From positions 15,822-79,821 of the forward strand of contig JAFGIV010000013.1 in assembly GCA_016929435.1 (NCBI GenBank): DNA of 64,000 bases, given 5' to 3'. Under the pieces are notes generated by a model. That model was not told where the DNA came from, made no database searches, and saw only the letters and a program-made list of their open reading frames with translations. Shown here piece after piece: positions 6,944 through 52,500 of this stretch (within the stretch, counting starts at the first letter, position 1; the number at the start of each line of letters is the position of its first letter). Made by a program: the position numbers and the translations under genes. Origin of the DNA: Candidatus Uhrbacteria bacterium. GTDB taxonomy: Bacteria > Patescibacteriota > Patescibacteriia > SG8-24.

Positions 6944-8338
6944 ATGTCACGAACACTCGTCATAGACACCGTCGGCAAGGTCGGGCAGGAGGTCACCCTG
7001 TCCGGTTGGGTTCATGTCCGGAGGGACATGGGCAAGCTGGTCTTCATTGACCTGCGCGACCGGACCGGCACTATCCAGGCGGTTTTCCTGCCAAACCGGA
7101 AAGAGCTGCTGGAACAGGCCAATGTCCTGCGTCCGGAGTTCTGCGTCAGCCTGACCGGCACGGTCAATGCCCGCCCGGACAAGCAGGTCAATCCGGACAT
7201 GGCCACCGGAACGGTGGAGTTGGAGGTGACCGGTCTCACGATCCTGAACGAGGCCAAGACCCCGCCGTTCGAGATCGACAGGGACACCAGGGGAATAAGC
7301 GAGGAATTGCGCCTCAAATACCGCTATCTGGACCTGCGGACCGATCGGATGAGGAAAAACCTGAAGTTAAGGGCCGACGTCACCTCCTCCTTCAGGAAGT
7401 TCCTGGTCGGGGAGGGTTTCACCGAGGTCGAAACCCCCATCCTGACCAAGGGAACCCCCGAGGGTTCGCGGGAGTACCTGGTGCCGTCACGCCTGCATCC
7501 CGGAAAGTTCTATGTCCTTCCCCAGTCGCCGCAGCAGTTCAAGCAGCTCCTGATGGTCGCCGGGGCGGAAAGGTATTTCCAGGTCGCCCGGTGCTTCCGG
7601 GACGAGGATCAGCGCGGTGACCGCCAGCCGGAGTTCACCCAGCTGGACATGGAGATGTCTTTCGTCTATGGGGAGGAGGACGTGATGGGTATCGTGGAAG
7701 GGATGTTCAAGACGATGCTGAAGGAGGTCGCCCCGGAGAAGAGACTGACCTTCACCGAGTTCCCGCGGATCGGCTATGCCGAGGCGATGGAGAAGTACGG
7801 CAGCGATAAGCCAGACCTGAGAAAAGACAAGAACGATCCCAACGAATTGGCCTTCTGTTGGGTGGTGGATTTCCCGCTGTTCGAGATGTCCGAAACCGAG
7901 GGCCGCCTGGTATCCGCCCACCACCCGTTTACGGCCCCGAAGGACGAGGACCTGCCCCTGCTGGATGCCGAACCGGCCAAGGTCCGGGCCAAGGCCTATG
8001 ACATCGTCCTGAACGGGTATGAGATCGGAGGCGGCAGCATCAGGATCCACAAACGGGAACTGCAGAACCGGATATTCCAGATATTGGGCATTCCCGACGG
8101 GGACATCGCCCTGCGGTTCGGGCACATCCTGGAGGCCTTTGAATACGGTGCGCCGCCGCACGGCGGCATTGCCCCGGGGCTGGACCGGGTCGTCATGCTT
8201 TTGGCCGGGGAGCCGAACATCCGGGAGGTCATACCGTTCCCCAAGACCGGTGATGCGAGGGGCCTCATGATGGGCGATCCGTCGGAGATCCCTTCCGCCC
8301 AACTGGCCGAGGCGAACATCGAGATCGCCAAGAAATAA
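6944..8338 (+). CDS. aspS: Aspartyl-tRNA synthetase, bacterial-type motifs but short (464 aa, apparently lacking the GAD insertion domain)
   Basis: [40 protein letters not shown] (bacterial AspRS signature); C-terminal [14 protein letters not shown]. Length is about 120 aa shorter than canonical bacterial AspRS. Confidence 0.85.
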
Positions 8339-8390
8339 CCCGCCTTCGGCCCCTCTTGGGGAAAAGACCCCTACCCCCTTCGGGGGGGCT

Positions 8391-8879
8391 ATGAAAAGCG
8401 GGCACGGCGAAGATTTTGGTAAAACACGGCTTGAGAGACTGGAATGCGGCGGTCTGTCTAAGGAAGCCGTTGGCGGAATCGGGCATAAGAGGCTGTATCA
8501 CGAACTGGCATCATCGGCTCGAAAGATGAGGGAGAATCCGACCGTGGCGGAGTCGAGACTGTGGAATGAGATTCGGGAATCCCGCTTGGGCGCCAGGTTT
8601 CGCAGGCAATACGTCATCGACAGGTTTATTGTCGATTTCTGCTGCATAAAATTGAGGTTGGCGATTGAGGTGGACGGTTCGGTACATGACACCCGGAAAG
8701 AGTATGATGCAGAACGGGATCTGATATTGGAATCCTATGGCTGTAAGGTCTTGCGGTTCCCCAACGCCCAAGTCACGGGAGAGATTGAAATCGTGCTGAA
8801 TGCGATTCGTCACGCTATTGAATGTCGGATTGAGAGGACACCCCCAAACAAGTTCCCCCGAAGGGGGACAGGGGTTTAA
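8391..8879 (+). CDS. DUF559 (very-short-patch-repair-like endonuclease fold) domain protein
   Basis: Core ...PTVAESRLWNEIRESRLGARFRRQYVIDRFIVDFCCIKLRLAIEVDGSVHD...DAERDLILESYGCKVLRFPNAQV matches the DUF559 family. Start uncertain (internal Met at 8526). The 3' end runs into a REP half-site. Confidence 0.6.
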   Translation: MKSGHGEDFGKTRLERLECGGLSKEAVGGIGHKRLYHELASSARKMRENPTVAESRLWNEIRESRLGARFRRQYVIDRFIVDFCCIKLRLAIEVDGSVHDTRKEYDAERDLILESYGCKVLRFPNAQVTGEIEIVLNAIRHAIECRIERTPPNKFPRRGTGV

Positions 8880-8895
8880 AAAACCTTTCAAAAAC

Positions 8896-8925
8896 GCAAA
8901 ACCGCCCTCAAGAGGGGCGGTTTTA
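8896..8925 (+). terminator. Intrinsic terminator hairpin
   Basis: aaaccgccctcaagaggggcggtttt: GC stem plus T-tract, directly before the IS left end. Confidence 0.5.
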
Positions 8926-8929
8926 AAAA

Positions 8930-9858
8930 TGGGTAATAGGAAAATCGCCCCACCAAGTCGGGGTGATTTTTTAGACGGTTGAGCGGAAAATTGGCACGGT
9001 TTGGGGGAATAGGAAAATCATCCCGCCAAACTATGACAAACCCGGTCATCTGCCCGCACTGCGGGAGCGACGAATTCTGGGCCGTGAGGGGCCACGCGCT
9101 GAAGTGCTCAGCGTGCCGCGTCGAGCGCGTCGCGATACCCGCAAGGCCCGTCACGGGCTTCGCCCTGACGCGGCGCGGCTGGCTGTCGGCGATCGACTGC
9201 CTGCTCCGCGACGGAACCGGCACGGCAATGGCGCTGGAGCTTGGGATGGCGGAGCGGACGGCGTACAAGGTCATCGCCGCGCTCCAGCGCGCGATGTGCG
9301 GGGACGCGCCCGTGCGGCTGCGCGGCGCGCGCGAGGCGGACGCCACGTACGTCGGCGGCGATTGGGCGAACAAGCGCGTACACATTCGCGCCAAGGGCAC
9401 CAAGAGGGGCCGGGGCACAAGCAAACGGTGCGTGTTCGGGGTCGTGCAGCGACGTGGGCCGGTCATCGTCTGGGCGGTGCCGGGCGAGCGCCGCGAGGTA
9501 GTCGGGCCCCTGATTGCGGCGGCGGTCGAGCCGGGTGCGACCGTGTGCACCGACGAGTGCGGGGCGTACGGGCACCTCGCCGAGCTCGGCTTCGGGCACG
9601 AGACGGTCAACCACGGCGCGGGCGAGTACGCACGCGGCGACGTCCACACGCAGACGCTCGACGGATACTGGGGCCGGCTCAAGAATTTCCTCGCCGCAAA
9701 GGGCGGCGTCCAGCCGCAGCACCTCATGAGGTTCGTCGGCGAGCACTCGTGGCGCTACAACAACAGGGGCCTGTCCCGGAAGGAACAGGCCCTGAAGCTG
9801 TACGGGCTATTGGTGCAAAAGTGAAAAATTGGTGGGATTTGTTTCCTATTACCCAAAA
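8930..9858 (+). mobile_element. IS1595-family insertion sequence (about 0.93 kb) with about 13-bp terminal inverted repeats
   Basis: Left end GGGTAATAGGAAA (8932-8944) and right end TTTCCTATTACCC (9842-9854) are inverted repeats. A single transposase ORF lies inside. The interior is visibly much more GC-rich than the flanks. A second near-copy of the left IR (ggaataggaaaatc, about 9007-9020) makes the exact left boundary ambiguous. Confidence 0.6.
9033..9824 (+). CDS. IS1595-family (ISXO2-like DDE) transposase with N-terminal zinc ribbon
   Basis: N-terminal CPHCGS...CSAC zinc ribbon followed by a DDE region (ADATYVGGD..., VCTDECGAYGHL, HETVNHG, WRYNNR), typical of DDE_Tnp_IS1595. The six-frame ORF starts at 8979 (TTG); ATG at 9033 preferred. 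Confidence 0.75.
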   Translation: MTNPVICPHCGSDEFWAVRGHALKCSACRVERVAIPARPVTGFALTRRGWLSAIDCLLRDGTGTAMALELGMAERTAYKVIAALQRAMCGDAPVRLRGAREADATYVGGDWANKRVHIRAKGTKRGRGTSKRCVFGVVQRRGPVIVWAVPGERREVVGPLIAAAVEPGATVCTDECGAYGHLAELGFGHETVNHGAGEYARGDVHTQTLDGYWGRLKNFLAAKGGVQPQHLMRFVGEHSWRYNNRGLSRKEQALKLYGLLVQK

Positions 9859-9859
9859 T

Positions 9860-9886
9860 TTAAGCTGGGGACTGTCCCCAGCTTAA
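9860..9886. repeat. REP-like palindrome copy (ttaagctggggactgtccccagcttaa)
   Basis: Perfect 27-bp palindrome. Member of the GGGGAC-N-GTCCCC family seen at eight other sites; abuts the IS right end. Confidence 0.7.
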
Positions 9887-9902
9887 AAAATTAAAATCAG
9901 TT

Positions 9903-10232
9903 TCAGTCTTCCCACAGGTTTAATGCAATCATCACTCTCGGTTCTGCCTTGACCCCATATTTCTCCAGCCAGCGGATGAATCTGTCTCGGACGGTCGTCG
10001 CCCGTTCTCGAATTTTTTCCGGATTCAGCTCGCCGAACCACTGAATCTGGTCAAGGGCCACGCCGATCCCGGTCAGGCCGTATTCTGTCCTGGTGCCTGA
10101 CCATTGCGGGACTATTTTTAGCCCTTCAAATTCGTGGGTATTTTCGGCAATTTTTTCCAGTTCCGTGCCGGCGAATCTATCCGGGGTAATTCCCAGATAG
10201 ACGATCCCATACACCTCGCAGTTTTCTGTCAT
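9903..10232 (-). CDS. Hypothetical protein (109 aa)
   Basis: Intact ORF in lower-GC DNA adjacent to the IS; no recognisable motif. Confidence 0.35.
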   Translation of the reverse strand: MTENCEVYGIVYLGITPDRFAGTELEKIAENTHEFEGLKIVPQWSGTRTEYGLTGIGVALDQIQWFGELNPEKIRERATTVRDRFIRWLEKYGVKAEPRVMIALNLWED

Positions 10233-10349
10233 TTACCCTCCTTTTTGGGTTTTTAAGGAAGGGATGACATTAACAGGCTTTAGTCGGCCTGTCAAGGGAC
10301 GGGATTCAAAAAAAGAGGGGCAGGTTTGCCCCTCAAGAAATCAGGTTGC

Positions 10350-10640
10350 CTATTTTTTGCTTGCGGCCATGACGGCTATTTTTCGGATATCGCTGACATG
10401 TCCTTCGCACATCAGCGAAACCTTAAGTGCCTTGTCCGTTTCCCTGTCGAAAAAGGCATAGAGCCCGTCCTCATCAACGGAAAGGACCAGCACCGGTTTC
10501 GGCAATGCCCTGTCTTTCGTCCAGACATACACCGTTTGCCCGATTAGCCCATGCAGCCTCTTGGCAAAGGATCGATCTTTCGGACTCAAGTCCGGACTCG
10601 TTTCGAATTTTCGCCCCTCGTCGTTTTTTACGCTTTCCAT
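10350..10640 (-). CDS. Hypothetical protein (96 aa)
   Basis: Intact ORF co-directional with 9903-10232; no recognisable motif. Confidence 0.3.
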   Translation of the reverse strand: MESVKNDEGRKFETSPDLSPKDRSFAKRLHGLIGQTVYVWTKDRALPKPVLVLSVDEDGLYAFFDRETDKALKVSLMCEGHVSDIRKIAVMAASKK

Positions 10641-10756
10641 CCACTATCCCTTTCCTTTCCTTCAGCATACCATGGGGTGAAACAAGCGGAAATGTCCGCA
10701 AAATGATATATTAAGACAATAACCGTCAGGAATCACCCGTTAACCGCACGTAAGAT

Positions 10757-25322: not shown

Positions 25323-25470
25323 GTCCGTTCGGTTAATCGGCGGAGACCTTAGGTCAGATTCAGGGAGCTGTCAAATCGAGTTTTTTGCTTATTTTAAGCA
25401 ATCTGACCGGATGGGTATGTCGGCAACCGGTGTGGATTGGTTGGGGGTTGGGGATAATTTTTTAAGGCAG

Positions 25471-25499
25471 GGGACAGTCCCCAGCTTAAATTTTTAAGC
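25471..25499. repeat. REP-like palindrome copy
   Basis: ttaaggcaggggacagtccccagcttaaa. Confidence 0.65.
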
Positions 25500-25559
25500 T
25501 TCTTCCCTATTTTTGCCCTATTCCCGTTTCAACCCGGATTTCGGGCCGTAAAAAAACAA

Positions 25560-25578
25560 GCCGGGGACTGTCCCCGGC
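25560..25578. repeat. REP-like palindrome copy (short form gccggggactgtccccggc)
   Basis: Perfect 19-bp palindrome with the same GGGGACTGTCCCC core; forms a doublet with the 25471 copy. Confidence 0.55.
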
Positions 25579-25581
25579 CCG

Positions 25582-26163
25582 TCAGTTAAATTTTCCCATC
25601 GCCGATTCCGGGCCGTCGGCCAGTAGCGTCCTCACCGCTTCGGCGGCCCGTTCGGCGGCCGCCTTCAGTTCGGCCAACTCTTCGGCGGACGGCCGACCGA
25701 GGACAAAATCCGCAGCCTCGGACCGTTTGGACGTTTCCGTCCCGATCCCGATCCTCAACCGGGGGAAATCCCGGGTCCCCAGCCGTTCGATGATCGATTT
25801 CAGTCCGTTGTGCCCGCCGGCCGAACCGGACAGACGCAGCCGCAGCCGCCCCAGGGGGATATCCTTCTCGTCAGCGATCACCAGGATGCGGTCCGGATTG
25901 ATCTTGTGGAAGGAGGCGATGGCCGCCACTGCCTGCCCGGACAGGTTCATGAAAGTTTGGGGAAAGGCCAGCATGACCTTCCGTCCGGCCAGTCGGCCTT
26001 TGGCGGTCAGGGCCTTGAACTTTCGGTTCATTGCCAGGGATCCGAAACCGTCGCCGTGCCTCCTTAGGATGGCCTCAATGGCCATGGCGCCGGCGTTGTG
26101 CCGGGTCTGGGCGTATTCCGGTCCGGGATTGCCCAAACCGACGATCAGCCAATCCATGGCCGA
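25582..26163 (-). CDS. pth: Peptidyl-tRNA hydrolase
   Basis: MDWLIVGLGNPGPEY..., canonical Pth N-terminus. The six-frame ORF extends to 26220; the Met at 26163 is preferred. Confidence 0.85.
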   Translation of the reverse strand, partial: SAMDWLIVGLGNPGPEYAQTRHNAGAMAIEAILRRHGDGFGSLAMNRKFKALTAKGRLAGRKVMLAFPQTFMNLSGQAVAAIASFHKINPDRILVIADEKDIPLGRLRLRLSGSAGGHNGLKSIIERLGTRDFPRLRIGIGTETSKRSEAADFVLGRPSAEELAELKAAAERAAEAVRTLLADGPESAMGKFN

Positions 26164-32419: not shown

Positions 32420-32450
32420 GGAAGGGTCCAAGACAGAGGAGGGGACTGTC

Positions 32451-32463
32451 CCCGGCAGGACCG
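32451..32463. repeat. REP-like core copy (ggggactgtcccc)
   Basis: Core palindrome only; forms a doublet with the 32512 copy. Confidence 0.45.
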
Positions 32464-32511
32464 GCTTTTTCGGACGGCACACGGGGTCCAGGACGGCGTT
32501 TTTAAGCCGGG

Positions 32512-32540
32512 GACTGTCCCTTGCCTTAAAAGTTTAAACT
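32512..32540. repeat. REP-like palindrome copy (imperfect)
   Basis: ttaagccggggactgtcccttgccttaaa; overlaps the stop region of the RAYT gene. Confidence 0.55.
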
Positions 32541-33145
32541 CCGTCGAATTTCATCAAATTTGATTCTTCGGAAAAGCTCGTCAGATGACCGATCTCCATC
32601 CTGTGCTCGGTCAATTCCCTATGGGCCCGATGCCGGCTCAACGGATCATCGCCGATTGATAGGTATTGGTCGTCGAAAGTGATGATTCTGTCGTGCGGAG
32701 AAGAGGTGTGCCCACGGTAGCTGGTCCATCGGTATTGTTCCGGCCGTTCGCACAGGCCACTCCTTACGGGATTCAACTCTATGTAAGAAGAACAGGTTGC
32801 GAAGTAGATTTCGTCAGAAATCAGCTTACTTTTGAACCTGTCCTGCCACAGGTGTCCGATCCCGCCGTACTTGTTCCTGTGCCAGATCGAGTATCCCTGT
32901 TCGATCATCTTCATGGCCAAGGAAAGACATCCGGCATTTAGAGAATCGACCAGGAGATGATAGTGATTCGGCATCCAGGCATAATAGAATATCCTGATGC
33001 CTGTTTTTCGTTTGGCCCTAAGGATCAGCTGGCGGAATTTTAGACAGTCTTCATCGTCGTGAAACACAGGTTTTTTGTTGTTGCCTCGGTTATAGACATG
33101 AAATATCCCCACATCACCGATGACACCCCTTGGTTTTCTGGGCAT
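32534..33145 (-). CDS. IS200/IS605-like HuH tyrosine transposase, REP-associated (RAYT-like)
   Basis: HuH motif MPNHYHLLV; C-terminal catalytic Tyr region QYRWTSY; about 200 aa. Flanked on both sides by REP-like palindromes. Confidence 0.7.
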   Translation of the reverse strand: MPRKPRGVIGDVGIFHVYNRGNNKKPVFHDDEDCLKFRQLILRAKRKTGIRIFYYAWMPNHYHLLVDSLNAGCLSLAMKMIEQGYSIWHRNKYGGIGHLWQDRFKSKLISDEIYFATCSSYIELNPVRSGLCERPEQYRWTSYRGHTSSPHDRIITFDDQYLSIGDDPLSRHRAHRELTEHRMEIGHLTSFSEESNLMKFDGV

Positions 33146-33276: not shown

Positions 33277-33306
33277 TTTAAGGCAAGGGACAGTCCCCAG
33301 CTTAAA
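33277..33306. repeat. REP-like palindrome copy
   Basis: tttaaggcaagggacagtccccagcttaaa. Confidence 0.6.
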
Positions 33307-34414: not shown

Positions 34415-36508
34415 ATGTCAAGACAATTTTCCTTGGATCGAATCCGGAACATAGGCATCATCGCCCACATCGACGCCGGGAAGACCACCTTCAGCGAACG
34501 GGTCCTGTTCTATACCGGAAAGAAGCACAAGATCGGCGAGGTGCACGATGGGGGGGCCACCATGGACTGGATGGACCAGGAACAGGAGCGGGGCATCACC
34601 ATCACCTCCGCCGCCACCACCTGCCTTTGGAAGGACCACCAGATCAACCTGATCGACACCCCCGGACACATCGACTTTACGGTCGAGGTCAAGCGGTCCC
34701 TGCGCGTCCTGGACGGTGCGGTCGTCGTCTTTGACGGCGTGGCCGGAGTGGAGCCGCAGTCCGAGACCAACTGGCGCTATGCCGACGATTTTCGCGTTCC
34801 GCGGTTCTGTTTCATCAACAAGCTGGACCGGACAGGGGCGGATTTTTACGCTGACCTGAAGTCCATCCACACCCGACTTACCCCGAACGCCTATGCCATG
34901 CAGCTGCCGATCGGGACAGAGGCCAATTTCGTCGGGATCGTGGATCTCCTGACCCGTCGGGCCGAGATATACAGGGACGACATGGGTAAGGACATAGAGG
35001 AAACCGACTGTCCGGAGGACCTTAAGCCGAAGATGGAGGAATACCGAGCCAGGCTGATTGAGGCGATCGTCGAGAACGACGAGGCCATGATGGAGAAGTA
35101 CCTGGCCGGTGAGGAGCCTTCGCTCCAGGACCTGAAGCGGGCCCTACGCAAGGCGGTCATCAACCTGAACGTCATTCCGGTGTTCTGCGGCACTGCCCTG
35201 AAGAACAAGGGCATCCAGTTCGTCCTGGATGCGGTCGTCGATTACCTGCCGTCCCCGCTGGACGTGCCGGCTGTCAAGGGAATCGACCCGCGCGACGACG
35301 AGAAGGTCCTGGAGCGCGACCCGAGCGACGACGAGCCGTTCGCTGCCCTGGCCTTCAAGATATACGCAGACCCGTTCGTGGGTAAGCTCTGCTTCTTCCG
35401 CGTCTATTCCGGTGTCCTGAAGGCCGGTTCCTACATCGTCAACACCACCACCGGAAACAAGGAGCGGATCGGCCGCATCCTGCGGATGCACGCCAACTCC
35501 CGGGAGGAGATCGAGGAGGTCAGGACCGGGGACATCGCCGCGGCCGTTGGCCTGAAGAACACCTTCACCGGCGATTCCCTCTGCGAGGAGGACCACCAGA
35601 TCACCCTGGAGAAGATGACGTTCCCCGAGCCGGTCATCCACCTGGCCGTTGAGCCGAAGACCAAGGCCGACCAGGAGAAGCTGGCCGTGGCCCTGCAGAA
35701 GCTGGCCGAGGAGGATCCGACGTTTACGGTTCGTACCGACGAGGAAACCACCCAGACGATCATCGGCGGCATGGGGGAGCTGCACCTGGACGTAATCGTC
35801 GAGCGGCTGCGGCGGGAATTCAGCGTGGAATGCAATACCGGCAGCCCGCAGGTCGCCTACAGGGAGACCATCACCAGGTCGGCCGAGGCCGAAGGCAAGT
35901 ACGTCAAGCAATCCGGCGGCCGCGGCCAATATGGCCACTGTTGGATACGGGTCGAGCGGATTCCGGAGGAAGAGCGGGCGGAAAAGGGCAATTTTGCCTT
36001 CCTTGACGAGATCAAGGGAGGCGTCATCCCGCGGGAATACATCCCGGCCATCGGTAAGGGCATCAAGGAGGCCATGGCGACCGGCGTGGTCGCCGGCTAC
36101 CCGATGATCGGCATCCAGGCTGCCGTATATGACGGCACCTACCACGACGTCGATTCCTCGGAGGTGGCCTTCAAGATCGCAGGTTCGATGGGCTTCAAGG
36201 ACGCCTGCCGGAAGGCCGGACCGGTTCTCCTGGAGCCGATCATGAAGGTGGAGGTCATCGTTCCCGAGGATTTCATGGGAGACTGCATCGGCGACCTGTC
36301 ATCGAAGCGCGGCCAGATCAAGGAGATGCGCGACCGCACCAACGGCATCAAGGCGATCGAGGCCTCCGTTCCGCTGTCCGAGATGTTCGGATACGCCACC
36401 CAGTTGCGCTCAATGACCCAAGGCCGCGGTTCCTATACCATGGAATTCAATTCCTACGAACCGGTCCCGAAGAACGTTGAGGAGGCCATCAAGGCAGGGA
36501 AGAAATAG
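34415..36508 (+). CDS. fusA: Elongation factor G
   Basis: G1-G4 motifs ([18 protein letters not shown]); 697 aa. Confidence 0.95.
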
Positions 36509-36527
36509 TCCCCATCAAAAAAATCCA

Positions 36528-36578
36528 AGCATAAGATCGGCATCCCCGTCCGTCAGGCCATGGCCTGCGTGGGGGTGC
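36528..36578 (+). terminator. Compound hairpin downstream of fusA
   Basis: atcggcatcccc...caggccatggcctg...gggggtgccgat nested inverted repeats followed by a T-tract. Confidence 0.4.
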
Positions 36579-36628: not shown

Positions 36629-36657
36629 TTTAAGGCGGGGGACAGTCCCCAGCTTAA
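36629..36657. repeat. REP-like palindrome copy
   Basis: ttaaggcgggggacagtccccagcttaaa. Confidence 0.65.
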
Positions 36658-36701
36658 ATTCCGTTGGAAATTAGAGGTGACCGCTTAAATTTGGTTAGAT
36701 A

Positions 36702-36731
36702 CTTAAGGCAGGGGACTGTCCCCTGCCTTAA
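36702..36731. repeat. REP-like palindrome copy (perfect 29-bp palindrome)
   Basis: cttaaggcaggggactgtcccctgccttaaag; forms a doublet with the 36629 copy. Confidence 0.7.
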
Positions 36732-36907
36732 AGTTTGCGGACTCCCGACACACGGCGGAGACGGGACACCGCCCCGAACATGACGGCGGTTCCGGTTATC
36801 GGCATGCGAAAAGCCACGGACGGTTCCGGGAATGAAGGAATCTTTGGTGATCCGGACGGATCAAGAAAGGGGCATGAGCAGTTATTCGAGATCTGACCTG
36901 CTACCGA

Positions 36908-36930
36908 TAAGGCGGGGGATGTCCCCGGAT
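36908..36930. repeat. Degenerate REP-like copy
   Basis: ataaggcgggggatgtccccggatttg. Confidence 0.35.
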
Positions 36931-36959
36931 TTGAGCAAAACCGTCAATTAAGCTAAAAT
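36931..36959 (+). promoter_or_regulatory. Sigma70-type promoter (TTGAGC-17-TAAAAT) for tyrS
   Basis: Sequence match 8 nt upstream of the tyrS ATG region. Confidence 0.4.
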
Positions 36960-36967
36960 CCCATCAT

Positions 36968-38391: not shown

Positions 38392-38895
38392 ATGAGTTAC
38401 TACATAATCATTCGAGGCCCGTTAGGAAGCGGTAAATCAACGATATCCGAGAAACTCGCTCAAATTCTTGACGCAAAATACATTGGAATGGACGAGGTGC
38501 TCGAAAAGCATGGCCTTGATAAAATGCCGCCTGACGCACCTTGCATACCAGCGGAAAATTTTATAAAAGCAAATGAAATCGTACTGCCAGAAGTAAAAAA
38601 ATTACTTACAGGCGGCAAGATCGTTATTTTTGATGCCTGCTTTTATCATAAGGAAGTGATCGAGCACCTCGTCCAAAACCTTGAAATGCCGCACTACATT
38701 TTTACGCTTAAAGCACCATTGGAACTCTGCATAAAAAGAGATAGTGAACGAAGCAAAACTCTTGGTGAAGGTGCGGCAGGGGCTGTCCATTCGCTCGTTT
38801 CCCGGTTCGACTACGGCAATATTGTTGATGTTACAGGGGGCCTCGAAGACGCAATAAAAGATATTCTTTCTTTCCTACCGATGCCCAAAAATTAA
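38392..38895 (+). CDS. Chloramphenicol-phosphotransferase-like (CPT family) P-loop kinase
   Basis: Walker A GPLGSGKST at the N-terminus; VIFDACF (Walker B-like); overall block order resembles CPT/AAA_33 small kinases. Lies in a low-GC island. Confidence 0.45.
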   Translation: MSYYIIIRGPLGSGKSTISEKLAQILDAKYIGMDEVLEKHGLDKMPPDAPCIPAENFIKANEIVLPEVKKLLTGGKIVIFDACFYHKEVIEHLVQNLEMPHYIFTLKAPLELCIKRDSERSKTLGEGAAGAVHSLVSRFDYGNIVDVTGGLEDAIKDILSFLPMPKN

Positions 38896-39075
38896 ATTAC
38901 TTAACAGCGTGTATGCGGTTCCGTTCGTCGTCGCACCTTATCTTCACTGCACCCATATTTGTTGGTGATTGCGCTTCGCACTATTATTTCACCCGCAAAC
39001 ATCGCTTATATCTGGCCGTCGGGCGCAATTTCGCTCCGCCCCCCAAAACGATTATAATTTTAAGGGAATGAAATT

Positions 39076-40059
39076 TTGATTTTTATGAATCCAGAAATGT
39101 CCCACGGCATTGAACGACCCGAATCACGGCAGGAGGGTTCGGTCGTTCTTGACGCCCTGTCTTTCGAGTTTTGCGGGGATGATTTGGTGCGTGACTTTTA
39201 CGGTAAAAAATTGCGAGAGATGGAAGATTACACAAAATGGCTGGAGGACAGCAGGGAAAATTTAGAACAGAACAGGGAGAAAATAGCCAAGGCCGTGGAA
39301 GACGGCCTGCTCAATGACCCCGAACCAGAAACAATTTGGAAATTTCAGGCCGATAAGGCGAGGGAGAGTCAGGAGAAGGTGTTGGCGATAAAAAAGGAGA
39401 TAGAAAGTAGAATCAAAGAAATTAGGGACGAAACGGGGAGAAGATTGGGCAAATTTCTCCCCGATTGGTTTCCCGGTGAGGCAAGAATCACCTTCACCAT
39501 GAACGAAAAAGCCGATTTTTGCGTTGAAGGCGAAACCGTAACCGTAGATTTGGGACGACTGTCGTTTGAGCAAAACCCGGTCGAAAAAGTGAAGGAAGGT
39601 CTGGCACACGAAGTTTTTCATCTTTGGATGAAGGAGAAAAACAAGCGGCCTGACCCTGAGCGGAGCGATGAAACTGACGATGACCTAAAAAACCAAATCA
39701 TATCCCGAACCGTCGATGAGGGTCTGGCGGTTTTGGTGAGCGGACAATCCTTGGCGGAGCATCACCAAAAACAGGGACGAGACTATCAAGAGTACATTGC
39801 GGAGTCATTTGAATTCTTCAGGGAATTTTTAGCGCAGGATGACGGAGCGGAGCTGGAAAAAATCAACGAGAAGGAATTCAGGAACATGGGACATTTTTAT
39901 GTGGTCGGCAATGAAATCGCGGCGGCTGTCCTGCGGCAGGACGGCATGGAAAAATTTAGGGGACAAATCGTTGAGGCAAGAGACAACCCGCCCGTGTTTT
40001 TGGGGAGATACAGGAAGATTTGCGGAAAAAACGCAGGTTTGCATAAAATCGATCCATAA
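39076..40059 (+). CDS. Hypothetical protein with HExxH zinc-metallopeptidase-like motif
   Basis: 327 aa, Glu/Lys-rich; GLAHEVFHLWM contains HExxH. Low-GC island. Start could be the internal Met at about 39088. Confidence 0.35.
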   Translation: MIFMNPEMSHGIERPESRQEGSVVLDALSFEFCGDDLVRDFYGKKLREMEDYTKWLEDSRENLEQNREKIAKAVEDGLLNDPEPETIWKFQADKARESQEKVLAIKKEIESRIKEIRDETGRRLGKFLPDWFPGEARITFTMNEKADFCVEGETVTVDLGRLSFEQNPVEKVKEGLAHEVFHLWMKEKNKRPDPERSDETDDDLKNQIISRTVDEGLAVLVSGQSLAEHHQKQGRDYQEYIAESFEFFREFLAQDDGAELEKINEKEFRNMGHFYVVGNEIAAAVLRQDGMEKFRGQIVEARDNPPVFLGRYRKICGKNAGLHKIDP

Positions 40060-40293
40060 AAATAATTTTGCCCGAATGGTGTCCGCTATCGTTCGTTAAT
40101 CTGTCGGCGTTAGCCAATGCGGCATATCCGGTTACGGCTTTCGTCCGAAAGCCTCCATCCATATTTTATTTCGCCCCGCCCGACCGTCGCCCGCGCGGCA
40201 TGCCGGCCCGGTGGCCCCGCCGTCGCCCCGCCGCGATCGCACAAACGCCGCCCCTTATCGGAAATGATTTAGCCGCCTAATCTTACTGACAAT

Positions 40294-40905
40294 ATGGAAA
40301 AAGAAGATTTTACGTCGATTGGAATCTGCTTTTCGTGCGGGGTGCGCAAACGAAACGGTAAGGATGTTCTGGCTTGGGATACGCGAGCCAGGACCGATAG
40401 GGCATTCATCCTATACAAACTTGGATATATCAGCAAAATCCTCTGTACCGGGGGCATATTCCAAAAGGGGCAGCAGGTTCCGATCGCCGAATTAATGAAA
40501 GGTTACCTGACAGGAAAGGGCGTGCCCAAAAACGACATTCTAATCGAGACCAGATCCGTGGAAACCGTAGAGAACATAAAATTTTCCCTCTTATTACTGA
40601 AAAAAAGAAATATTCTCAAAAATCTCAAAAATGCCGAGCAGTTGCGCTTGGTTTTGATTAGCGAACCGAATCATTTGCGCCGTATAGAGATTATCGCCCG
40701 TGCTTATTTGGAAAGACACAAAATAGGCAAATTCGTGCCCTTGCTACTCGATCCGGTCCATTACCATATTTCTGAAAAAACCAGGCACGAAGAGGACGCA
40801 ATGCTGTACCATACGGCCCTTGATCCGCTTGGTGAGGGTGAGATTTTTGAAAAAATTAGACAGGAAAGACGTCAGGCCCTTGGCAAAAGACACGGTTCAC
40901 GTTAA
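40294..40905 (+). CDS. DUF218 (YdcF/SanA/ElyC-like) domain protein
   Basis: ILIETRSVETVENIKFSLLLL matches the DUF218 signature (E..S.nT.EN). Low-GC island. Confidence 0.5.
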   Translation: MEKEDFTSIGICFSCGVRKRNGKDVLAWDTRARTDRAFILYKLGYISKILCTGGIFQKGQQVPIAELMKGYLTGKGVPKNDILIETRSVETVENIKFSLLLLKKRNILKNLKNAEQLRLVLISEPNHLRRIEIIARAYLERHKIGKFVPLLLDPVHYHISEKTRHEEDAMLYHTALDPLGEGEIFEKIRQERRQALGKRHGSR

Positions 40906-40974
40906 CGTGTCGGTGTCTTTGAAAAATGACGTCCGCCGAACGGTGGCGTCCAAAATCCCCCACAGGAGGAAAAA

Positions 40975-41376
40975 ATGACGGTACAATTCAGGAAAACATT
41001 AGATACCCTGCTCTCGTTCAACGAAGGAAGGCCTATAAGGGTTGGAGTTCGGGGATCAAGAGAGTATCTAAACGCAATATTGGGCTATTTTCGAGATAGA
41101 TCATTTATCGTCTCTGAACAGGGATCGGTTCGTGATCTCGGGAATGCCTTTCCCATTCCCGAAAACATACCAGATACAGCCCCCGGATATGTAGTCGTGG
41201 TTGATTCAAGGGGTGCTTGGGACAATCACACGATGAATAAGGGAATCCTAACGGCCAATCTGGGAATCTCTGATGGTCAAAACGCCGTTTTTATCTCATG
41301 GACCTCTGATCTCAACGAAACTTCAGGAGGTGGGGCGGAATGGGACACCTCTTTTCTTGAGGGTATTAACCAGTAG
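40975..41376 (+). CDS. Hypothetical protein (133 aa)
   Basis: Intact ORF at the island edge; no motif recognised. Confidence 0.3.
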   Translation: MTVQFRKTLDTLLSFNEGRPIRVGVRGSREYLNAILGYFRDRSFIVSEQGSVRDLGNAFPIPENIPDTAPGYVVVVDSRGAWDNHTMNKGILTANLGISDGQNAVFISWTSDLNETSGGGAEWDTSFLEGINQ

Positions 41377-41512
41377 CTCCTGCCGCCATCCCCAAAAAAA
41401 TCGCCTTGACCGGGGCGATTTTCTGTTCCCCCCGCCGCCAGGTTCCGGAGGTTCGGATATCCGGCATAATCTGGTATAATACCATTGCAGGATAACTCAA
41501 ATACCATTCGGG

Positions 41513-42583
41513 ATGTCCAATTTCAGTTCAGCGGAATTGACCATAATCGGCGCTTTCGGGGCGGTCTTTCTGGCTTTCCTGACGATTCACCCCTACCGTC
41601 GCCGGCTTTTCGGTTGGCGGATCGCGGCGGTGGAGGCGTTCGCCTTCGCCCTGGTCATGATCAACTTCACGGAAATGGTGATGTCCAGGGACAGCGGGCA
41701 GTTTACGGTCCGGACGGTCCTGTTTACGGTTTCGGCCATCGCCGGAACCCTCCTGGTCCGGAGCGTGGTCGCGGAGATGGAAACCCACCGGAAAGTGAAG
41801 GCCCTGGCGGTTCGGCTGAACAGGATGAACCGCGAGCTGCGCCGGATGGACGAGATGAGGAGCGAATTCGTTTCCGTCGCCTCCCACCAGCTGCGGACCC
41901 CGGTTTCGGTCATCAGGGGATACCTTTCCCTCATCAAGGACGGGGCGTTCGGGAAGCTGGAGGGGGACCTGCAGGACAAGATGGAGCAGATATACGACAT
42001 AAACGAACGGCTGGTCCTTTTGATCAACAACCTGCTCAACGTCTCCCGGATAGAGAAGGACGCCGCCCAGTTCTGGTGTTCGGAGGTGAACCTTCCGGAG
42101 ATCATCCGCCGGACGGTGGACAGCATGGGGTTTCGGATCCGCGGAAAGGGGCTGACGCTTGATTTCGTTGATCCGGAAGCCGGAGTGCCCAATGTCTTCG
42201 CCGACCCGGAACGTCTGACCGAGGTGATCGTCAACCTGATCGATAACGCCGTAAAGTACACCTATTCCGGTTCCGTGACGGTGAGCGTTTCGGAGGGGGA
42301 GGACGGGTCGTCGGTCATCGTCCGGGTGAAGGACACCGGCATCGGCATGGACCCGCAGGACATGCACCACGTGTTCCAGAAATACTACCGTCCCCACCGC
42401 CCGACCGACGAGCACCAATCCGGACTGAATCTGGGTTTGGGGCTGTATGTCTGCGCCCGCTTCCTGGAAAGCATGGGCGGGAAGATTTGGGTGGAGTCGA
42501 CGGAACCGGGGAAGGGGACCACCGTCGCTTTTTCCCTGCCGGTCCGTCCGGGCGGGGTCTGCGTCCCCACGGAGGGAAAGTGA
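41513..42583 (+). CDS. Sensor histidine kinase (orphan, no adjacent response regulator)
   Basis: N-terminal TM segments; H-box FVSVASHQLRTPVSVIRGY; HATPase_c N/G boxes (NLIDNAVKYT, DTGIGM, GLGLYVC). Confidence 0.85.
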   Translation: MSNFSSAELTIIGAFGAVFLAFLTIHPYRRRLFGWRIAAVEAFAFALVMINFTEMVMSRDSGQFTVRTVLFTVSAIAGTLLVRSVVAEMETHRKVKALAVRLNRMNRELRRMDEMRSEFVSVASHQLRTPVSVIRGYLSLIKDGAFGKLEGDLQDKMEQIYDINERLVLLINNLLNVSRIEKDAAQFWCSEVNLPEIIRRTVDSMGFRIRGKGLTLDFVDPEAGVPNVFADPERLTEVIVNLIDNAVKYTYSGSVTVSVSEGEDGSSVIVRVKDTGIGMDPQDMHHVFQKYYRPHRPTDEHQSGLNLGLGLYVCARFLESMGGKIWVESTEPGKGTTVAFSLPVRPGGVCVPTEGK

Positions 42584-49567: not shown

Positions 49568-52500
49568 ATGGTCAGACAAGCCCTTTCCGCAAGAAAAACG
49601 CTGGCCGCCATCCTGGCATTGGGTTTGGGGGCGGTTTTGGCCGTTCCCGCCCTGGCCCAAGTCGATGTCGGCCTGGAATCGGCGGCCGCCATTGGCCTTA
49701 CCACCACTGACATTCGAACGATCGTTTCCCAGGTAATCAACGTTTTCCTGGGTCTTTTGGGTATTGTGGCGGTTGCGCTGATAGTTTACGGCGGATACGT
49801 CTACATGATGGCCAAGGGGGACCAGAACGAGGTTCAGCGCGCCAAGAAGATATTGGTGAACGCCCTCATCGGGCTGATCATAATTTTGGCCTCATACGCC
49901 ATCGCCTCATTCGTGCTGCGGGCGATTTCCGGAGGCAGCGGCGGAGAGGTGGGGGAGGGGGATTGCCCTCCGGGGGCCACCTGCAGCTCCTCCTTCCCGT
50001 CCCCGGGCAACTCCCTCCTGCTGAACGGGGTCATTCCGAGCGGCAGCGGCCCGAACGGGATGGGTTGGACCAGGGATAGCCTGCCCAGGATCGTCTTTAA
50101 CCGCAAAATCGACGCAACCACCCTGGATGACAGCCGCATCAGGGTTACCCGCTGCAACAGCCGGATGGACGGGGAGACGATCGCCGATTTCAGGAACAGC
50201 GCCTGCAATACTGCGGTATCCGGGGAAGTCAGCCTGGTAAACGAGACCACTGCCGTGTTCCGACCGGTCGGACTGGAGAATGAGGGTCTTTTTGACGGTG
50301 ACTACTGGTATCGGCTGGAGCTTCGGGGGATCCCCCTGCCGATCAGGAGCCTGGACGGGAAGGACCTGGCATGCCTGACGGCCCTGCCGGGAGACGGGGA
50401 TTACGATTCCTACGTTCAGAACCTGCCGTCTAATTCCCGGGTCTGCATTAGGGCCATTGCCTACAACACCCTAATTGATACCGGACCGCCCACCGTAGCC
50501 ATCAGTTGGCCCAGGGACGGGCAGTCGATCTGTGCCGATACGACCGAGGCTTCGGCCGTGGCCAGGGACGATGTCCTGGTTTCGGGGATCCGGTTCTCTC
50601 TTTCCGATCCGGCCTCGCCGTCCGACCCGCTTTCCCTGGCCTTCCCGTCGAACCCCTTGGACATCCCCAATTCCGGGCAGGTGACCGGTCCGTTTACCGC
50701 CTCCGCCACGATTTTCGGCAGTCACCTCAACGTTGGACAGGAATACAGGTTTTCGGCCGTGGCTTCCGACCTCCGTTTCCCGAACCCCGAAGGGGAGACT
50801 GTTGGGGTTGATTTCAGCGTCAGGCCCCAGCACTGCTGCGACGGCCAGCTGAACGACGACGAGAGCGGGGTGGACTGTGGCCCTGATTCCGGCTGCGGGT
50901 CGTGCCCGGGGGACGGGTGCACGGAAAACGGCGACTGTTCGTCCGGTTTTTGCGAGGAAGGCGTCTGCGTTTCCCTGCCGCGAATAGTCTCCGTTGACCC
51001 GATTGATCCCAATACGCAAGTTTTTGGCGGCGGTCCGGGGACCCTGGTTACCCTGAACGGCGAGTACTTCGGCGGGGCGGTCGGGGTCGTGGAGTTCTAT
51101 GACGGTACGCATGCCCTGACCGCCGAACCGTGCCTTCCGGGAGCCTGGACCAACGGCCAGGTGACCGTTAGGGTTCCTGAGGGGGTGAAGGTGGGAGGGC
51201 GGTATTTCGTCCGACTGACCAGGTCCGACAGCCGACACACCAGCACGGAAGCCGGACAGGAGGATGCCTACGGCTGGCTGGGGTATTTTCAGGAGAACGG
51301 GAATAACACCCCGGGCATCTGCCTGATCAGGCCGGCCAGCGGCAGCGAGGGCGACGTTTTTGAGGTTGTCGGTGACGGTTTCGGTGACGGTTCGGTGGGT
51401 GACCTGACGGTTAGTTTCGGGATATCCAACCCTTTCACGGTGGTGCCGGATTCCCGGACAGCGTCTTCCCTGACGGCCAAGGTCCCGCGGGCCCCGGAGG
51501 GCACCTATCCGGTTCGGGTTTCCGGATCCGGATGGATGACCACAAACGACCCGAAGTTCGCCGTCCTTCTGCCCTCCGAAAGCATGCAGCCGAAGATCGA
51601 GGGGATTTCGCCGAACGCCGGCCCGGTCGGAAATTACGTTACGATCAGCGGTAAGGGGTTCGGCAGCCAGCGCGGGCGGGTGGTGTTCCTGTTCGGGGAC
51701 GGACTGAACGAGGAACGGGCCATTGGGGCGGATACGGTCTGCGAAGACAGCTGGAAGGACTCCTACGTTACGGTCAAGGTACCGAAACAGTACGAGTGCC
51801 AGGAAGGAAGCGCCTGTCCCCTGCAGTTGGGCACGCACCGGATCCGGGTGGAGACGGCCAAGGGGCTGAAGAGCAACACCGTTAACTTCACGGTCAACAC
51901 CGATCCCCTGACCCCGAACATCTGTTCCATCAAGCCGGATAACGGCCCGCCCGGCACGGTCGTGACGGTGGGCGGGGAAAACCTTGGATCCGGTCCGGCC
52001 GCCGCCGCTCCCCTGAACGCCGTCGGATACGAGTGCCAGGACCCGAACCAGACCGGATGCGACATCAACGGCGTCGCCATGTCCTCGGAGGTCTCCTCCT
52101 GGCAGGTGAAGGCCCTGAAGTCAATCGTTCCGGGCAACAGGCTTAGCGTTGCCACCTGGCCGGACAGCGGCGATGTCCATGTCTGGTCCTACAATGTCCG
52201 CAGCGGAAACGGCCTGCCGTTCCTGGTCCAGGACTGCAACGACGGCGGGGACCGGGCCTGCCCCGCGGGTTTCGTGTGCTGCCAATCCGGTATCTGCGAT
52301 GACGGTTCGTCCAGCCCGACCGGCCGTCCCTGCGACTTCAGCCGCACCAGCGAGTTCGCCTGGCGTTTGAGCACGGAGATGATGCCCGTACCCCCCCAGC
52401 TTCTGACCTGTCCGTCATGCGGGGCGGTCGCCTGTCCCCTGACCGACGGCCTGCAGAGCCCCTCCCCGTTTCCGGGGTCGCGGGATGCCTGCGTCAACGC

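Follow-up and report, generated by a model that had tools for sequence, protein, structure and literature searches.

How did an insertion sequence (IS) come to lie directly beside a REP palindrome in Candidatus Uhrbacteria, where does this element begin, and is it a recent arrival? The locus was analyzed in a 64,000-nucleotide stretch of one contig (the window, to which all positions refer). The overall explanation that we favor, at a probability of roughly 0.78, is that a single 924-bp IS1595-family IS of a Patescibacteria-associated subgroup was probably imported from a higher-GC Patescibacteria lineage and inserted beside the REP through its preference for A/T-rich targets, without recognizing the REP.

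Positions 8931 to 9854 on the plus strand hold one intact IS1595-family IS in the Candidatus Uhrbacteria (Patescibacteria/CPR) chromosome. The complete element has 66.8% GC, and its limits agree with the limits of homology in related copies: homology with loci L001 to L004, whose proteins are 88% (L001 and L002), 78% (L003), and 62% (L004) identical to the window transposase, starts at 8931 and ends at 9852 to 9854. Relatives of the same subgroup measure 914 to 920 bp. The element consists of a single transposase ORF between 26-bp repeats that start with GGG, in keeping with the GG start of the IS1595 family. The terminal inverted repeats that had been described as bounding the element were borne out; the core repeats GGGTAATAGGAAA (8931 to 8943) and TTTCCTATTACCC (9842 to 9854) could be extended to 26 nt each, with 21 of 26 positions matching. 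The left terminal inverted repeat (the outer IRL, GGGTAATAGGAAAATCGCCCCACCAA; 8931 to 8956, plus strand) is the left homology boundary in all four related copies, and the right one (IRR, reverse complement GGGTAATAGGAAACAAATCCCACCAA) lies at 9829 to 9854 on the minus strand. In L004, both ends are a perfect 26-bp repeat with the same sequence as the window IRR. The window holds only this copy, and the assembly has no further one on record, so that activity of the IS in this genome can only be presumed.

The transposase gene (9033 to 9824, plus strand; ATG at 9033, stop codon at 9822 to 9824) encodes 263 amino acids. The protein matched Pfam PF12762 DDE_Tnp_IS1595 over profile positions 2 to 153 of 153 (E = 1.1e-31, 110 bits vs. 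a cutoff of 27) and NCBIfam NF033547 transpos_IS1595 (124.7 bits vs. a cutoff of 75), which upholds the family assignment of the first-pass annotation. A 100% identical NCBI protein (P0001) is already named, correctly, 'IS1595 family transposase [Candidatus Uhrbacteria bacterium]' by the NCBI pipeline. The Pfam zinc ribbon PF12760 Zn_ribbon_IS1595 scored 25.1 bits (E = 1.8e-5), slightly below its cutoff of 25.4, and this domain is precomputed as present for P0001. Among 27 aligned relatives, zinc-ribbon cysteines C7, C10, and C25 are invariant, and C28 is kept in at least 90%. The catalytic residues are D103, D174, D210, and K217, with D103, D174, and K217 invariant in the alignment. Of 61 close proteins, 57 have D at the third catalytic position (HTQTLDGYWGxLK); the more distant relatives that matched a motif search, 70 loci with elements of about 860 bp, have E there (HINGLEGFWGYLKR). 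D210 is chemically equivalent to E but makes the triad a variant of the stated motif of D, D, E (or N/H) and a K/R seven residues later. The ISfinder groups of the IS1595 family are generally described with E, N, or H here. No invariant residue is missing from the intact ORF, and the element is apparently functional. The nearest known relative is 88% identical, i.e., 12% diverged.

The transposase region had been called strikingly GC-rich. The elevation was confirmed: the 792-bp ORF has a GC content of 0.702 (GC3 0.90) against 0.595 for the window and exceeds every other 792-bp stretch in it (mean 0.595, sd 0.042, maximum 0.672), but with a z of about 2.6 the excess is moderate rather than striking. 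The four closest copies have a GC content of 0.67 to 0.68 in host flanks of 0.56 to 0.69. The flank of L001 and L002 is a split CTP-synthase gene of 65% GC, with named best matches nearly all in Patescibacteria, and the closest genome matches came from Parcubacteria, Uhrbacteria, Moraniibacteriota, and Kerfeldbacteria. The GC excess is consistent with import from a Patescibacteria lineage of higher GC content, a transfer whose direction and timing we infer. The accompanying claim of recent acquisition was left plausible and unproven: the intact ORF, the GC content at the top of the window, and the 88% identical relatives in DNA of about 65% GC speak for it, and the missing clean target duplication and the 12% divergence of the nearest relative speak against it. 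Recent transposition is not demonstrated, because the window copy has only a 5-bp flanking repeat.

It is possible, although improbable, that the copy has long resided in the host lineage and that its GC excess is an intrinsic habit of the IS lineage, whose protein is rich in Arg, Ala, and Gly. GC1 and GC2 are raised alongside GC3 (0.68 and 0.52 vs. roughly 0.60 and 0.44), pointing to amino acid composition, and the IS lies 4 to 8 points above its flanks in other hosts too (L003, L010, and L012). The imperfect terminal repeats, the absent clean duplication, and the distance to the nearest relative would also suit an old resident. However, the GC3 of the ORF is higher than that of any other ORF in the window (maximum 0.844), no invariant residue has been lost from the intact ORF, and more distant members follow the GC content of their hosts (element/host, 0.44/0.44 in L014 and 0.51/0.47 in L010). 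The four closest copies, in contrast, stay constant in GC whether their flanks have 0.56 or 0.69, as expected for recent spread among hosts.

The sole direct repeat at the ends of the element is the 5-bp AAAAT, found at 8926 to 8930 on the left and at 9855 to 9859 on the right, where it overlaps the first T of the REP stem. A check for target-site duplications returned this repeat on both sides and no clean 7- to 8-bp duplication; the 7-mers at the two ends differ (left TAAAAAT, right AAAATTT). Among 56 loci with GGGTA...TACCC ends, 14 had exact 7-bp and 9 had exact 8-bp duplications, and 25 of the 56 likewise lacked a clean duplication with no REP nearby. The 45-nt flanks of the 56 loci have 31% GC vs. 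47% in control DNA. The family inserts into A/T-rich DNA with duplications of 7 (sometimes 8) bp, and by analogy the window IS would target such DNA and duplicate as its relatives do. As a separate observation, the flanks of family members are slightly more stable when folded, by about 1.8 kcal/mol, than expected for their GC content; this was rejected as evidence for hairpin targeting, the comparison being confounded by intergenic flanks set against mostly coding controls.

On the left, the element is preceded at a distance of 6 nt by a terminator hairpin 3' of the DUF559 gene (8898 to 8924, plus strand), a 10+10-nt perfect inverted repeat (-17.5 kcal/mol, z = -4.1). This terminator and the REP are convergent hairpins with a short A/T-rich gap between them; the copy would have inserted into this gap, where it would do no harm. 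Without the IS, the joined flanks would read ...GGCGGTTTTAAAAA(T)TTAAGCTGGGGAC..., that is, the terminator, AAAAAT, and then the same REP, with no second REP. Neither an empty-site allele nor a second copy of the IS was present in the collections searched, which hold no close relative of the source genome. The 109-aa right-hand neighbor had no homologue besides itself among 5.8 billion proteins, and AspRS, the DUF559 protein, YbaK, and a 96-aa ORF, all on one contig, each formed a single-member cluster at 90% identity. For the transposase, GTDB genomes scanned with a protein pattern contained no close relatives, and a profile scan returned 80 distant loci. An Rfam scan of 8300 to 10400 gave chance-level matches only (E above 0.3).

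The palindrome beside the right end is a genuine REP, as had been claimed. It lies intact outside the IS at 9859 to 9887 (TTTAAGCTGGGGACTGTCCCCAGCTTAAA; a 14+14-nt perfect palindrome, -20.4 kcal/mol, z = -5.8), and the end of the IS at 9854 is 4 nt from its stem. The core GGGGACNGTCCCC occurs nine times in the window with up to one mismatch vs. 0.8 expected, and a leave-one-out REP profile recovered 9859 to 9887 at E = 1.3e-7. About eight copies lie between ORFs in the window as G+C-rich, repeated, intergenic palindromes, including three doublets with 68- to 93-nt spacing, and a terminator scan also picked up the copy at 9859 to 9887 as terminator-like with respect to the convergent gene on the minus strand. 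A RAYT-like gene was found at 32534 to 33145 on the minus strand (Pfam Y1_Tnp, 45.4 bits vs. a cutoff of 23; NCBIfam REP_Tyr_transpos, 63.8 bits, below its cutoff of 80), flanked by REPs at 32501 to 32530 and 33277 to 33306 that differ by an opposite central base.

Could the transposase have recognized the REP palindrome or doublet and inserted into the spacer of a doublet? The neighboring palindrome, the presence of doublets in the window, and the REP-targeting IS elements documented in five other families (PMC1525189) would suit this idea. It had been proposed with a 'REP half-site' (GGGGACAGGGG; 8864 to 8874, plus strand) left of the element. Without the IS, GGGGACAG at 8864 would stand 74 nt from the REP core, with a central A and then a central T, as in two of the three doublets of the window. 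The half-site, located inside the terminal part of the annotated DUF559 ORF, did not hold up: it was indistinguishable from chance. It occurs nine times at up to one mismatch vs. 5.3 expected, the REP profile gave no match at 8864 to 8874 even with E <= 100 allowed, and 24% of the 60-nt windows reach an alignment to the REP consensus at least as good as that of this region. Insertion into a doublet is likewise unsupported.

REP targeting itself is very unlikely. The REP is unsplit, and its reunion with the left flank reconstructs nothing new. In the 88 loci with relatives that were retrieved, the REP core of the window did not occur once, although their hosts may carry different REPs or lack them altogether; the relatives whose ends are defined lie in ordinary A/T-rich DNA. 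Of the pure-A/T 7-mers in the window, 12% to 16% lie at REP edges vs. 0.3% to 0.4% of all positions, so that an A/T target preference alone would place about 1 in 7 candidate sites at a REP edge. In type 1 association, every copy (100%) enters the REP at one fixed point; for IS1016, an element of the IS1595 family, only 2 of 17 copies were associated with a REP (PMC1525189). The adjacency is most likely explained by the A/T-rich flanks of REPs and a tolerance of intergenic insertion, not by REP recognition. One insertion beside one REP may leave room for some REP or hairpin preference.

The reversed order, in which the IS came first and a RAYT-like transposase later placed the REP beside it and disturbed the right-hand duplication, is likewise very unlikely. 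The REP-flanked RAYT-like gene suggests that REPs may be mobile in this genome, and the two flanks of the IS share only 5 bp; however, positive evidence is nil, removal of the REP converts neither 7-mer flank into the other, and the relatives without a clean duplication have no REP near.

There remains the left end. The first-pass annotation had noticed a near-copy of the left repeat inside the element and had taken the left end as ambiguous. The near-copy is present: a third repeat-like site (GGGGAATAGGAAAATCATCCCGCCAA; 9004 to 9029, plus strand) lies 73 nt inside the outer repeat, ends 3 nt before the ATG, and matches the outer IRL at 22 of 26 positions and the IRR at 21 of 26. The ambiguity is not. 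The inner repeat was found in every subgroup member examined, and the distance from the outer repeat to the ATG is 98 to 103 nt in nine members with 41% to 100% amino acid identity. The outer repeat is the terminus because the homology of relatives (41% to 88% protein identity) starts there and because the 7-bp target duplications AAAATTA in L003 and AAAAGAA in L008 flank it. The box of the inner repeat changes together with those of the terminal repeats: one group carries CCCACCAA, and the other carries TGCCACCA. In comparison with L004, the inner site is conserved at 23 of 29 positions vs. 13 of 24 in the spacer. These sequences identify the outer repeat as the true left terminus and the inner copy as a conserved internal feature.

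The least credible account takes the inner repeat at 9004 for the functional left end of an IS of 851 bp and 8931 to 9003 for a relic of another copy or a MITE-like fragment (a left repeat plus a partial right end), which would make the left end truly ambiguous at this locus. It can appeal to the inner repeat, whose match to the IRR equals that of the outer one, and to IRLs 30 to 48 nt from the ATG (about the position of the inner copy) in the relatives of about 860 bp. Moreover, 8982 to 9003 resembles the 22 nt preceding the IRR tip (16/22 in a fixed register, binomial P about 1e-5), a hint that the additional 73 bp may have started out as a fragment made of a left end and a right end, and L013 has the corresponding unit perfectly duplicated in tandem. 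Against this account, the 73-bp segment lies within the element at a constant distance from the ATG in every subgroup member, the duplications of L003 and L008 surround the outer repeat, and the likeness to a partial IRR is lost in L003 (9-10/22) and L004 (7-10/22). Nested ends may describe an ancient origin of the subgroup, not an event at the window locus. The match behind the idea of a half-IRR, with the extra 73 bp as a fossil right-end/left-end junction or MITE, was significant in the window and in L001 (15/22) and was not kept in L003 or L004; the idea was set aside except as a possible ancient origin.

Just inside the outer repeat, and partly formed by its inner half, lies a terminator-like hairpin (8939 to 8972, plus strand) with the stem TCGCCCC/GGGGTGA (8945 to 8951 and 8960 to 8966) followed by a T-run at 8967 to 8972. 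It folds at -18.3 kcal/mol (z = -4.5), with 0 of 200 shuffles as good, and is retained in five related sequences; among these, one base pair has changed on both sides in a compensatory way and several have changed on one side only, which amounts to little true covariation. A plus-strand terminator scan did not list this hairpin, probably because its longest stem consumes the T-run; folding confirmed it. A consensus scan placed a promoter-like site at 8991 to 9018 on the plus strand (TTGGCA, a 16-nt spacer, and GAAAAT), with the second hexamer inside the inner repeat; one site vs. 0.6 expected makes this a weak match. TTGACA/TTGAGA-like hexamers occur at the equivalent place in the distant relatives L008, L010, L012, and L014. 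The leader runs from the outer IRL through the terminator-like hairpin and the promoter-like site to the second IRL-like site abutting the start codon. The transposase would recognize terminal inverted repeats of about 26 bp that start with GGGTAAT and carry the CCCACCAA box. The inner site is a putative transposase-binding site through which the protein may control its own promoter or translation start, and the left-end hairpin could shield the gene from outside transcription or read-through.

Compared with the relatives of about 860 bp, the subgroup differs in its sequences by about 73 extra bp at the left end and by Asp for Glu at the third catalytic position. Tentatively, and with more doubt than attaches to the main reading, it could be an undescribed Patescibacteria-associated IS1595 subgroup with a D-D-D triad and a three-site architecture (outer IRL, built-in terminator, and promoter overlapped by a second putative transposase-binding site at the ATG), giving a self-contained, insulated, and self-regulated gene that was imported from higher-GC Patescibacteria into a REP/RAYT-running member of Uhrbacteria. 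The value of the locus is mainly one of annotation, as one more IS1595-family element. The apparent double left end is a conserved design in the subgroup, and knowing this makes it easier to set the limits of such elements in MAGs. Caution is also suggested, as an IS beside a REP in a G+C-rich genome can come from an A/T-rich target preference alone. The neighboring REPs and the RAYT-like gene suggest REP/RAYT systems in small-genome CPR bacteria and may merit a study of their own.

In IS1, IS10/IS50, and IS911, the left end reportedly holds the transposase promoter and a transposase-binding site and blocks read-through from outside. The window IS resembles them in that its promoter-like site overlaps a repeat-like site by the start codon and in having a terminator-like hairpin immediately inward of its left end. 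It differs in that the candidate regulatory role falls not to the terminal repeat but to a separate third copy of the repeat, which lies 73 nt further in.

The neighborhood of the IS shares with REP/RAYT (REPIN) systems (PMC3116915, PMC3333891, PMC2817692) the G+C-rich intergenic palindromes of about 30 nt, some in inverted doublets, and a Y1-transposase gene between two of them. Unlike those systems, the host here is a Candidatus Uhrbacteria (CPR) and the RAYT-like protein reaches 63.8 against the curated 80 bits; the likeness concerns the neighbor and not the IS. No description of a REP/RAYT system in CPR bacteria was found in the limited literature searched. The known REP-targeting ISs are IS1397, ISKpn1, and ISPsy8 (IS3 family), IS621, ISPpu9, ISPpu10, and ISPa11 (IS110 family), and ISRm22 (IS4 family) (PMC1525189). 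The window IS is like them in lying directly beside a REP in a REP-rich genome. Every copy of those elements has inserted at one fixed point within the REP, which is thereby split and can be reconstructed, whereas the REP of the window is intact; the window IS is moreover a single copy of a different family whose relatives do not need REPs. Its adjacency to the REP is at most the loose 'type 2' of PMC1525189.

The IS1595 family comprises the groups ISPna2, ISH4, IS1016, IS1595, ISSod11, ISNwi1, and ISNha5 (Siguier, Gagnevin and Chandler 2009, summarised in PMC8101967); an N-terminal zinc ribbon occurs in all groups except IS1016, and the target-site duplication is usually 8 bp (PMC8101967). 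The window IS conforms to this family in its one transposase gene, whose product has a zinc finger at the N terminus and a DDE_Tnp_IS1595 domain at the C terminus, its short repeats starting with GG, its size of about 0.9 kb, and the 7- to 8-bp target duplications of its relatives. It departs from the family in its third catalytic residue, Asp and not Glu, which would set it apart from the ISfinder groups. Its left end is also about 73 bp longer, with a hairpin and a second IRL-like site by the ATG, and the commonest duplication among its relatives is 7 bp and not the usual 8 bp. The nearest relatives of the window IS are found in Patescibacteria.

The element at 8931-9854, 924 bp in length, is an ordinary single-copy insertion sequence of the IS1595 family and is probably functional. 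The tips of the terminal inverted repeats, GGGTAATAGGAAA on the left (8931-8943) and its reverse complement TTTCCTATTACCC on the right (9842-9854), were read in the sequence as the first-pass annotation had proposed, and a repeat finder extended them to 26-27 nt (8931-8956 and 9829-9854; 21 of 26 positions identical). A single long ORF lies between them, and alignment with relatives and with an identical NCBI protein (P0001, 263 aa) showed that the transposase gene runs from ATG 9033 to a stop codon at 9822-9824. Its product matched NCBIfam transpos_IS1595 with 124.7 bits (cutoff 75) and Pfam DDE_Tnp_IS1595 with E=1.1e-31, confirming the family originally assigned, and scored 25.1 bits against Pfam Zn_ribbon_IS1595 (cutoff 25.4). 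Zinc-ribbon residues C7, C10 and C25 and catalytic residues D103, D174, D210 and K217 were invariant in 27 aligned relatives, and C28 was present in at least 90%. Members of the IS1595 family carry a zinc finger and a DDE domain and usually generate 8-bp duplications (PMC8101967). The transposase is already named correctly by the NCBI annotation. The earlier description was mostly accurate. The mildly new points are confined to the subgroup features (a D-D-D triad and a third repeat-like site in a lengthened left end) and to the nearby REP/RAYT system. Within the ORF, a GC-rich hairpin, GGGCCTGT-CCCGGAAGGA-ACAGGCCC (9767-9792), was picked up as a terminator-like site of the minus strand. It encodes a nearly invariant LSRKEQ motif, and its nucleotides were kept in the four related loci L001-L004, apart from what looks like a single G-C to A-T exchange in L004; codon conservation alone may account for this.

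To the left of the gene, an inner copy of the left repeat was found at 9004-9029, 73 nt inside the outer repeat and ending 3 nt before the start codon, with 22/26 matches to the outer repeat and 21/26 to the right repeat. The left end had been called ambiguous on this account, a view that relatives contradict, as their homology starts at the outer repeat and 7-bp duplications flank that repeat in two of them. Alignment of the window with L001 and L002, metagenome contigs encoding 88%-identical transposases, begins exactly at 8931 and continues rightwards, with the inner copy present in both; the layout was identical in L003 (78% aa identity) and L004 (62%). A clean 7-bp duplication, AAAATTA, surrounded the outer repeat and right repeat in L003, and AAAAGAA occupied the same positions in L008 (52%). 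The distance from outer repeat to ATG was 98-103 nt in nine members of 41-100% aa identity, and the inner-site box co-varied with the terminal-repeat box (CCCACCAA in the window's group, TGCCACCA in the group of L008, L010, L012 and L014). Taken together, these comparisons show that the outer repeat is the terminus of the element and the inner copy a conserved internal site.

Between the two copies lies a hairpin with a T-run behind it (-18.3 kcal/mol, z=-4.5), which five sequences retain and which shows one compensatory pair. A weak promoter-like match, TTGGCA-16-GAAAAT, was located at 8991-9018, its second hexamer inside the inner site. The hairpin would block transcription entering from outside the IS, and the inner site would let the transposase regulate its own expression. 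The ~73-nt left-end unit (TTTTTGTTTGAGCGGAAAAGTGGCATAATTATTCGATTTCATAAAATTTGCCACCAAA) is perfectly duplicated in tandem at 1351-1500 of L013 (Candidatus Moraniibacteriota, JBAXOD010000018.1), upstream of a related transposase gene, which suggests that this unit duplicates recurrently; the L013 copy is probably inactive because its third catalytic residue is Val. The right repeat tip of L001 (1128-1139) and L002 (977-988) read ...CCTATTACTT in place of ...CCTATTACCC, with the terminal CC altered, and no target duplication was found in either.

In 185,579 species-representative genomes scanned with a profile, 445 relatives were found and the best 80 retained. Among these 80, the closest came from Uhrbacteria (52%), Parcubacteria (48%), Moraniibacteriota (42%) and Kerfeldbacteria (41%), and the more distant (30-38%) from methanogens and many bacterial phyla. 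The distant relatives are ~860 bp long, with the left repeat just 30-48 nt from the ATG and Glu as third catalytic residue (HINGLEGFWGYLKR, 70 loci), whereas Asp occupies this position in the window's ~920-bp subgroup (HTQTLDGYWGxLK, 57/61 close proteins). These differences indicate a subgroup marked jointly by the 73-bp left extension and the D-D-D triad. In a survey of 56 loci with recognisable GGGTA...TACCC ends, exact duplications of 7 bp (14/56) and 8 bp (9/56) were all A/T-rich, and the 45-nt flanks on each side averaged 31% GC vs 47% in control DNA of the same loci.

That the IS was recently acquired by this genome, as first proposed from its GC content, is plausible. The ORF is intact, and its GC (70.2%) and GC3 (0.90) exceeded everything else in the window, where overall GC was 59.5%, any other 792-bp stretch reached at most 67.2% (mean 59.5%, sd 4.2%), and GC3 of other long ORFs peaked at 0.844. 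The computed elevation is real (z ~2.6) but moderate in size. On either side of the ORF, the non-coding DNA of the element is A/T-rich (49% and 37% GC), and the flanking DNA, with its DUF559 gene and pair of orphan ORFs, is unusually GC-poor (~0.46-0.55), a contrast that makes the element look more extreme than it is. The four closest copies stayed at 67-68% GC in host flanks of 56% to 69%. The right flank common to L001 and L002, whose left flanks differ, is a split CTP-synthase glutaminase gene of 65% GC with named best matches nearly all in Patescibacteria, which suggests a donor in a higher-GC lineage within the same phylum. Against recent arrival, the closest relative known differs by 12%, GC1 and GC2 were raised along with GC3, a sign that amino-acid composition may contribute, and the target-site duplication looked for at this copy amounted to just 5 bp (AAAAT) on both sides, the 7-mers TAAAAAT and AAAATTT being unlike. 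No second copy of the IS was visible in the window or on record for the assembly, and no sister genome for this locus was present in the collections searched; a single 93.7-kb contig of "Candidatus Uhrbacteria bacterium" was the sole recorded source of the identical protein and of four proteins encoded nearby, the latter being singleton clusters at 90% identity.

The low-GC islet housing the IS spans 8391-10700, between aspS and a ybaK-like gene. Its DUF559 (Vsr-like endonuclease) gene has 52% GC, with the last 12-19 codons running past the conserved domain, and its orphan ORFs encode 109 and 96 aa, both singletons at 90% identity; the former, the right-hand neighbour of the IS, had no homologue but itself among 5.8 billion proteins. 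A second low-GC island at 38392-41600 (0.43-0.49 vs 0.60), which may also have been acquired, encodes a kinase of the AAA_33 type, a putative zinc peptidase (DUF5700) and a DUF218 protein. A giant plus-strand ORF (49568-59320, 3250 aa) carries TIG and Big_5 Ig-like domains behind a T4SS_pilin domain at its N terminus, resembling large surface proteins frequent in CPR genomes.

The REP palindrome reported beside the IS, TTTAAGCTGGGGACTGTCCCCAGCTTAAA (9859-9887), is genuine: its core occurred nine times in the window with ≤1 mismatch (0.8 expected), and a profile built without this copy recovered it at E=1.3e-7. REP copies share a palindrome of ~30 nt with TTTAAG/CTTAAA at the sides. Three pairs, 68-93 nt apart, were located at 25461-25584, 32434-32530 and 36629-36732; their spacers are mutually unrelated, and two of the three show opposite central bases (A then T), a REPIN-like arrangement. 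Weaker matches resembling the REP occur around 36470-36550, 36880-36960 and 10221-10290. REPs with opposite central bases (32501-32530 and 33277-33306) bracket a minus-strand ORF at 32534-33145 (203 aa, 48.5% GC), which scored 45 bits against Pfam Y1_Tnp (cutoff 23) and 63.8 bits, under the cutoff of 80, against the NCBIfam REP-associated tyrosine transposase. Together, the ORF and its REPs resemble a RAYT/REP system, here in a CPR (Uhrbacteria) genome; in the paper collection searched, nothing relevant turned up on RAYT/REPIN in combination with Patescibacteria.

The proposed insertion into a REP doublet was not supported. Its left half-site, GGGGACAGGGG at 8864, occurs at chance frequency (nine in the window with ≤1 mismatch vs 5.3 expected) and lies within the last part of the annotated DUF559 ORF; the REP profile gave no match there even at E<=100, and an equal or better alignment to the REP consensus is reached by 24% of all 60-nt windows. 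Joining the flanks after removal of the IS and one AAAAT revealed no second REP, the order being DUF559 terminator hairpin, AAAAAT, REP. REP targeting fared no better: this REP core was present in 0/88 retrieved loci carrying relatives, and 12-16% of the pure-A/T 7-mers in the window lie at REP edges, vs 0.3-0.4% of all positions, so an A/T-seeking element would adjoin a REP about one time in seven. With one insertion to judge from, targeting of a REP or doublet is not supported by these comparisons. REP targeting is known in the IS3, IS110, IS4, IS256 and IS5 families, and IS1016 of the IS1595 family was REP-associated in just 2/17 copies (PMC1525189). In the documented cases every copy has inserted at one set position within the REP (PMC1525189), whereas the right end of the present IS lies 4 nt outside an intact, unsplit REP.
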